Origin: Vulcanisaeta distributa DSM 14429
Lineage (GTDB): Archaea; Thermoproteota; Thermoprotei; Thermoproteales; Thermocladiaceae
NCBI RefSeq assembly: GCF_000148385.1
Contig: NC_014537.1
Location: forward strand, 1,920,001-1,952,000
Reading direction: 5' to 3'
DNA length: 32,000 nt
The translations under genes were made by a program, and so were the position numbers. Below the pieces are notes generated by a model, which did not search any database, was not told where the DNA came from, and worked only from the letters and a program-made list of their open reading frames with translations. This document shows positions 14,513 through 15,385 of the stretch, piece by piece (position 1 is the first letter of the stretch; every line of letters starts with the position of its first letter).

Positions 14513-15385
14513 ATGACGTTCTCCATAGTGGCGACCGACGGTGTGGATGTTGGCATTGCTGTCGCATCTAAATTCATAGCCGTAGGCGCCATAGTACCTC
14601 ATGCACGGGCTGGTATAGGCGCTGTAGCAACGCAGTGCTACGCGAACCCGAGACTGGGCTCATTGATACTTAGGTTGCTTGAATCTGGTCTTAGTGCCAA
14701 TGATGCATTAATTAAGGCGCTTAATGAGGATTCAGGTAGGGAGGAGAGACAACTTGGTGTAGTGTCTATACGGGGTGACGCAGCCGCTTATACGGGTTCA
14801 AAGTGCCCTGAGTATGCGGGTCACATTGTGGGCAGTGGCTACGCGGTTCAGGGCAATATACTCGTTGGTCCTGAGGTTCTCGAGAAAATGGCTAAAGCCT
14901 TTGAGGCGAAACGGGGCGAGTTAGTTGATAAATTGCTTGAGGCATTAACCGCCGGTGATGCGGCTGGCGGTGATAGGAGGGGTAGGCAATCCTCAGCAAC
15001 AGGGTCTGGGTGATCATCAACCCTGAGGTCAACGTACGTATCAGTGAGACCGAGGTAACCACCGCCTGGCCTAAGCACTATAATCGCGACCTTGCGTAGA
15101 TTGTTTAGCATTTGGGAGTTAACGCTGTTGAGTAGGGAGGATCCTAATGATGTGGTTTTAAAGGCTGACGTTGCATTAACGGTTCAGAGGATTCTCAGGG
15201 GTCTTGGTTTTTATCGAGGTGAATTACACGGTAATTGGGATGAGAAGACCGAGGAGGCCTTTAGGGCGTGGGCAGGTTATGAGAATTTTGAGAATAAGAT
15301 TAGGAATGATGATAAGATATGGGGATCCATTTATCGCTACTTAATTAATGAGGCTAAGCGTAGGGGCTTGTTGGTTGATGATTAG
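14513..15385 (+). pseudogene. DUF1028-family (Ntn-hydrolase-like) protein with C-terminal PG_binding_1-like domain, interrupted by an internal inverted segment
   Basis: The N-terminal part (14513-14998) reads MTFSIVATDG..GIAVASKF..GAVATQ...GGDRRGRQSSA. The C-terminal part (15088/15092-15385) is in the same frame and reads LRRLFSIWEL...VQRILRGLGFYRGELHGNWDEKTEEAFRAW. The middle part is encoded on the opposite strand. Flipping 14999-15087 gives one 873-nt ORF. Confidence 0.75.
14999..15087 (-). other. inverted internal segment of the DUF1028 gene
   Basis: The minus strand encodes [30 protein letters not shown], the expected DUF1028 core between GRQSSA and LRRLF. The boundaries are ambiguous by a few nt; 14992-15091 is also frame-compatible. 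Confidence 0.75.

Follow-up and report, generated by a model that had tools for sequence, protein, structure and literature searches.

Short inversions that leave the surrounding sequence unchanged are covered by the four-point template-switch model, which includes a pure-inversion case with nothing else changed (Loytynoja & Goldman 2017, PMC5453318). The definite micro-inversions between human and chimpanzee span 17-33 nt and always have short inverted repeats adjoining their boundaries (PMC8755829). A standard alignment displays a pure micro-inversion as clustered differences, and the literature searched yielded no systematic account of such events for prokaryotes or archaea. Intragenic invertons, presumed to be invertase-driven, are characterised by inverted repeats detectable with einverted and by reads in both orientations; the repeats of the thiC inverton are 11 nt long, and one archaeal case is reported, in Salarchaeum sp. 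JOR-1 (Chanin, West et al., bioRxiv 10.1101/2023.03.11.532203). The Salarchaeum case qualifies the first-pass annotation of the locus described below, whose author knew of no reversible intragenic switch in archaea. Lastly, 51 pseudogenes were reported in the genome of Vulcanisaeta distributa (PMC3035369).

The locus analysed here lies in the chromosome (2,374,137 bp) of Vulcanisaeta distributa DSM 14429, within a 32 kb stretch of DNA that was analysed as a whole and is called the window below. We consider, with a probability of roughly 85%, that a recent, spontaneous, non-programmed and lineage-private micro-inversion of 100 bp, occurring in place, converted a conserved gene into a pseudogene. 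Like the micro-inversions of PMC5453318 and PMC8755829, the block is an exact reverse complement in place with base-perfect junctions, involves no recombinase and is specific to one lineage. Unlike the cases of PMC8755829, it is 100 nt long (three to six times longer), has no repeats above chance and is hosted by a hyperthermophilic crenarchaeon. It shares with the 'premature stop' intragenic invertons its position inside a coding sequence, the creation of a premature stop and the splitting of the ORF prediction into several, but differs from the invertons of Chanin et al. in having neither repeats nor a local recombinase and in having been seen in one orientation. As in the ordinary pseudogenes of the V. 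distributa genome, a conserved gene is disrupted and no protein was originally called; unlike in those, the lesion is not a frameshift, a point-mutation stop or an IS insertion, and it was missed by pseudogene detection.

The disrupted gene (14513-15385) is single-copy and encodes a DUF1028 domain (PF06267) followed by a PG_binding_2 domain (PF08823). Its 5' part (14513..14991, + strand) comprises codons 1-159 and bases 1 and 2 of the Ser codon 160, is collinear with the orthologs up to 14991, matches positions 1-164 of the PF06267 profile with 211 bits and carries Thr2, the N-terminal residue expected for an Ntn hydrolase. The inverted block (14992..15091, - strand, 100 nt), whose minus strand completes codon 160 with its third base and then encodes residues 161-193, lies wholly inside this one coding sequence and is single-copy within the window. 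The 3' part (15092..15385, + strand) holds codons 194-290 and the stop, corresponding to the rest of a linker helix and to PG_binding_2 (93 bits for PF08823), in the same frame as 14513.

As found, this organisation yields three open reading frames. The + ORF 14513-15013 is 166 aa long and terminates in ...GGDRRGRQSSATGSG (...GRQSSATGSG, then the stop), the read-through into the flipped block (14990..15013, + strand) giving the native Ser160 and then SATGSG, six residues foreign to the protein, before a premature TGA stop codon at 15011-15013. The + ORF 15092-15385 is 97 aa long, opens with a TTG start and is in a frame identical to that of ORF 14513-15013. The 87-aa 'antisense ORF' (14848..15111, - strand) is spurious and fuses the flipped block to the antisense of the upstream gene part; only its residues 9-40 match anything, namely the C-terminal end of DUF1028, its exact sequence was never called in a collection of 15 billion proteins, and it is not a gene. 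Re-inverting positions 14992-15091 gives one ORF of 290 codons, the ortholog length, in which DUF1028 is contiguous over profile positions 1-191 of 193 (237.6 bits with Pfam) and PG_binding_2 is covered over positions 1-74 of 74 (89.9 bits). Only after this re-inversion are the two Pfam profiles both matched without a break at scores above gathering. The proposal of the first-pass annotation, that an inverted intragenic segment splits one 290-codon DUF1028/PG-binding gene into three, is borne out with each ORF where it had been placed, and the PF06267 profile search that it recommended displays the strand switch directly, profile positions 164-192 falling on the minus ORF.

The limits of the block were fixed by comparison with the closest genome retrieved, GCA_001316125.1 (contig BBCS01000003.1, hereafter L083), which is 93.7% identical to the window over positions 10250-21335 (11.1 kb). 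The sole minus-strand HSP between the two pairs L083 4760-4859 with window 15091-14992, is 100 nt long and gapless, and reaches 96% identity with E = 2e-41, a match far beyond chance. At single-base resolution, the sequence of the relative is ...GGCAATC/GGCCGCGATT...GTTGCTGAG/TTGCGTAGATTG... (slashes marking the junctions), the part between the slashes being reverse-complemented in the window and the flanks being the same. At both junctions no base is gained or lost and the flanks are collinear to the base with GCA_001316125.1; there is no microhomology directly at either junction and no base-level ambiguity in the breakpoint position. Two sets of boundaries had been put forward at the outset, 14999-15087 being preferred and 14992-15091 being given as the outermost alternative. 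The preferred set does not hold, as it yields QSSAAII...DPVT/LRRLF and needs an indel pair relative to the orthologs. The outer set is the right one: it coincides with the 100-nt HSP and it alone restores ...QS[V/A]AII... at the ortholog length of 290 aa.

The other relatives give the same picture. In V. distributa JCM 11217, where synteny extends over about 10.9 kb at 85% identity, the block is again the sole strand-switched piece, as it is relative to an ENA contig and to Vulcanisaeta sp. AZ3; further minus-strand HSPs of the block were obtained with loci L002, L082 and L003. Aligning the orthologous loci, a check that had been advised, places the strand-switched block in DSM 14429 only, the seven Vulcanisaeta relatives (JCM 11217, AZ3, JCM 14467, JCM 16161, two ENA contigs and GCA_001316125.1) being collinear. 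It had also been anticipated that the minus-strand match would be coincidental if homologs lacked a collinear middle block. On the contrary, all 120 of the 120 homologs are fused and collinear, with the block sitting between GGDxRG and the C-terminal part. Judged from these alignments, the inverted state is derived and lineage-specific, since the relatives carry the collinear state.

The draft L083 has its own peculiarities. Frameshifts split many of its genes: S19e, DUF1028, TFS, PCNA, primase and eIF2-alpha are all fragmented, which is typical of homopolymer indel errors. Hence the 7-G run found in L083 opposite GGGG in the window (14979-14982), like its other indels, is not to be counted as a real difference.

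The gene is embedded in a cluster of housekeeping and information-processing genes (window 13471-16591) in the order L39e, dsDNA-binding protein, S19e, DUF1028, TFS, PCNA and primase, and its place in the cluster is constant across the Vulcanisaeta examined (the window and loci L001, L002, L003, L082 and L083). These archaea are understood to have no peptidoglycan. The conservation, within an information-processing cluster of such archaea, of a protein of Ntn-hydrolase fold with a 'peptidoglycan-binding' domain is an oddity in itself.

Could the flip have arisen during the sequencing, assembly or finishing of this 454-only genome of 2010, the real chromosome being collinear? We regard this as very unlikely. 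All the evidence does come from one strain and one sequencing project, and the finishing of the genome used phrap, 'fake reads' derived from the Newbler consensus and PCR products (PMC3035369). The flip is nonetheless found outside the finished Newbler/phrap assembly as well. Over 3,825 nt, the Logan de novo contig SRR060023_923, a k-mer-based assembly of raw reads, matches window 12796-16620 at 100% identity and crosses both junctions; SRR060023 probably stems from the same sequencing project, so that this contig represents an independent assembly and not an independent DNA preparation. 454 Titanium reads are several hundred bases long, and single reads should cover the 100-nt block and both junctions. 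The DSM 14429 genome was sequenced with 454 GS FLX Titanium only, at 106x coverage (PMC3035369). Moreover, the sequence of the block region is unique and offers an assembler no repeats on which to go wrong, and random chimeric reads do not make a base-perfect in-place inversion as a consensus. An editing artefact, which the first-pass annotation had kept among its three options together with an assembly artefact, is excluded because the public genome and an independently assembled read set contain the same sequence. An assembly artefact becomes very unlikely because of the 106x coverage in Titanium reads, taken as longer than 100 nt, and because a second assembler agrees.

Two other read-set assemblies from the strain do not reach the locus, one of them breaking off in a poly-G tail 21 nt short of the left junction, and this counts in favour of an artefact; these contigs, from SRR060963 and SRR3924012, leave positions 14971-15811 uncovered and have no bearing on the orientation. 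The resulting gap of 840 nt, inversion included, is on no contig with a complete gene call and is probably due to low coverage or read errors. Both assemblies restart at exactly 15812, in the AT-rich sequence TTTATA/TTTAAG (restart at the slash) upstream of PCNA. The SRR060963 contig (of L084-L086) ends at 14970 and is followed by 14 nt of poly-G junk. We considered whether this contig end was a graph branch reflecting both orientations and rejected the idea, since its end in a poly-G tail marks a tip of low coverage rather than a branch at 14991.

Reversible switching was examined through the inverted repeats that it would be expected to use. A seed-and-extend search found no inverted repeats bracketing the block. 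The best einverted-type score at its edges was 15, against a threshold of 50 and at the background median, a score that 70% of random site pairs equal or exceed; overall, with local alignment 39-70% of 2,439 random site pairs placed 100 nt apart in the window scored at least as high as the block edges. The longest perfect inverted repeat located between -5 and +4 nt relative to the edges has 4 nt (GCAA at 14986-14989 and TTGC at 15092-15095, offsets -2 and 0); as 30% of random sites have a perfect inverted repeat of at least 4 nt, this pair is at chance level. The initial observation that clean flanking inverted repeats are missing agrees with all three tests, each at chance level. The gapped similarity CAATC..GCAA..GGTC noticed at the same time does exist but, being equalled by 39-70% of random pairs, does not exceed the background.

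No recombinase, integrase or transposase domain was detected in any ORF of at least 100 aa in the 32 kb window. The Rfam search returned nothing at the locus, whether with gathering thresholds or with E <= 1, and the idea of an RNA gene or element embedded at the block was rejected. A hairpin of 5 bp (AATCG/CGATT) spans the left breakpoint in the DNA reconstructed for the ancestor; the idea of an unusual fold of this DNA was dropped, its folding being no better than that of shuffled sequences (z = +0.84).

To date the inversion, the differences from L083 were polarised with three outgroups. The window lineage accumulated 12 synonymous and 4 nonsynonymous changes (N61S, A161V, K229R and V273I), corresponding to a dN/dS of about 0.10 on its own branch, and neutrality (76% nonsynonymous sites) was rejected with P = 2e-5. 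No other stops or frameshifts are present in the re-inverted gene. Purifying selection thus prevailed during most of the period after the split and, further lesions being absent, the inversion must be young. Neither the relaxed selection nor the secondary decay usual in a pseudogene was thus found, which we interpret as very recent inactivation. We infer that the inversion is private to the lineage of the strain, or to its laboratory stock, and much younger than the DNA divergence of about 6% from its nearest sequenced relative.

One of the four replacements lies at the edge of the block. The A161V site (15089, - strand) is a C->T change in the gene sense (G->A on the + strand), 3 nt inside the right junction, where L083 has GGCCGCG and the window GGTCGCG, so that Ala (GCC) becomes Val (GTC). 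It is the sole change at a family-invariant position, S-A-A being present in 119 of the 120 homologs and Val in none. This C->T may be a by-product of the event, for example if a cytosine in a single-stranded intermediate was deaminated at about 90 C; alternatively, it may reflect later neutral drift.

Missing secondary decay is predicted by a young pseudogene but equally by a reversible switch, and the latter was therefore weighed as a 'premature-stop' intragenic inverton, flipped by a recombinase encoded elsewhere in the genome, in a culture that was mostly OFF when sequenced. Such an inverton would agree with a coding potential that is wholly intact on re-inversion and free of other lesions, with the dN/dS of about 0.1 on the strain's own branch and with the existence of intragenic invertons, one archaeal case included. 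Against it stand the edge scores given above, with no bracketing repeats, the lack of a recombinase in the window, the collinearity of all other Vulcanisaeta genomes and contigs retrieved, and the missense change at an invariant Ala beside the junction. Only the inverted orientation has been assembled so far, and the re-inverted 290-aa protein, with either Val or Ala at position 161, is absent from the 15-billion-protein collection. We therefore judge an inverton highly improbable. The same holds for an ON/OFF switch that would operate without recognisable inverted repeats in a hyperthermophilic crenarchaeon, by means of an unknown recombinase or of a recurrent replication-based flip, and in which a coding sequence kept intact and a dN/dS this low would be due to selection still acting on the ON form. 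Metagenomes were also scanned for the left junction in either orientation and for the inverted right junction, with 0 matches, which have no bearing on the orientation because these metagenomes contain no near-identical population.

The consequences of the inversion for the protein were evaluated on an AlphaFold model built for P0001, an intact ortholog (pLDDT 89.5), in which residues 161-193 cover two strands (159-166 and 178-187) and run into helix 190-205. These residues align to SAAMLVL...VTLRIDYHPD of PDB 2IMH, a structural-genomics entry and the only solved relative. The product as found, made of 160 native residues and SATGSG, has thus lost the last two core beta-strands (159-166 and 178-187) and 15 family-invariant residues, including GGY..YVD.RVDD, and the linker helix and PG_binding_2 domain are uncoupled from the DUF1028 part. 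On this model the 166-aa product is predicted to be unable to fold or function, and the DUF1028 + PG_binding_2 gene is presumably non-functional in DSM 14429. Its reading frame is disrupted in the way that defines a pseudogene, with a premature stop and with core strands and invariant residues lost. A functional gene fission, producing an active 166-aa DUF1028 protein and a separate active 97-aa PG-binding protein, is the least probable of the explanations considered: both flanking ORFs are open and called as proteins by PGAP, and the downstream one contains a complete PG_binding_2 domain, but the upstream product is deprived of the strands and invariant residues just listed, every homolog is fused and collinear, and the downstream TTG 'start' is simply the Leu194 codon at the breakpoint.

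The public record of the locus reflects the nature of the lesion. The flanking genes S19e and Tfs are ADN51426 and ADN51427; because these numbers are consecutive, the original annotation had no protein between them. RefSeq derives two proteins from the broken gene, WP_245522508.1 (166 aa) and WP_245522509.1 (97 aa), the 'start' TTG of the latter being codon Leu194. Both are bogus and are listed because pseudogene detection seeks frameshifts and stops, not strand-switched segments. They have propagated into UniRef, a database error that should be replaced by a single pseudogene.

Among the three options left by the first-pass annotation, a fixed inactivating micro-inversion is the one that we favour, as the inversion is reproduced in a read assembly and is accompanied by neither repeats nor a nearby recombinase. 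Given that the inversion is real, we lean towards a copying process linked to replication as what inverted the segment in place, either a double template switch (the four-point model, PMC5453318) or microhomology-mediated break-induced replication (PMC8755829). A base-perfect reverse-complement copy would have replaced positions 14992-15091; translation now departs from the native sequence after Ser160 and stops six codons later. Such a copy-based origin is favoured over the rejoining of two double-strand breaks because both junctions are base-perfect.

A few other features of the window were inspected. A PaREP1-family gene (PF05942) at 27464-27933 (+ strand) is split, profile positions 2-43 being found in 27464-27757 and positions 70-114 in 27766-27933, and its +1 frame reads on as ...EGWGHYIHRDYDEIIDGLYEEIGDRSII through a GGGTTGGGG run near 27716-27725. 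It was tried as a second micro-inversion and rejected, being a plain frameshift in a G-run, so that the gene is either truly a pseudogene or was misread by 454 sequencing at a homopolymer. An intact PaREP1 paralog is present at 28015-28383 (- strand). The TauE half-ORF at 31507-31878 was likewise dismissed as a split gene, as it runs off the end of the window. The region 25757-27460 (about 1.7 kb, GC 37-46%), located between an unannotated membrane-like ORF of 354 aa (24692-25756) and the PaREP1 genes, contains no ORF of at least 100 aa and no Rfam or tandem-repeat match.

The biological meaning of the inversion in DSM 14429 is modest: a single strain recently lost a conserved gene of unknown function by a rare type of mutation. 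It is also a clean, base-resolved and repeat-free inversion of 100 bp in an archaeon growing at about 90 C, of a kind seldom documented in prokaryotes. Models of template switching or break repair for the Crenarchaeota could draw on this case, which also provides a ready test locus for intragenic switching without inverted repeats in archaea.
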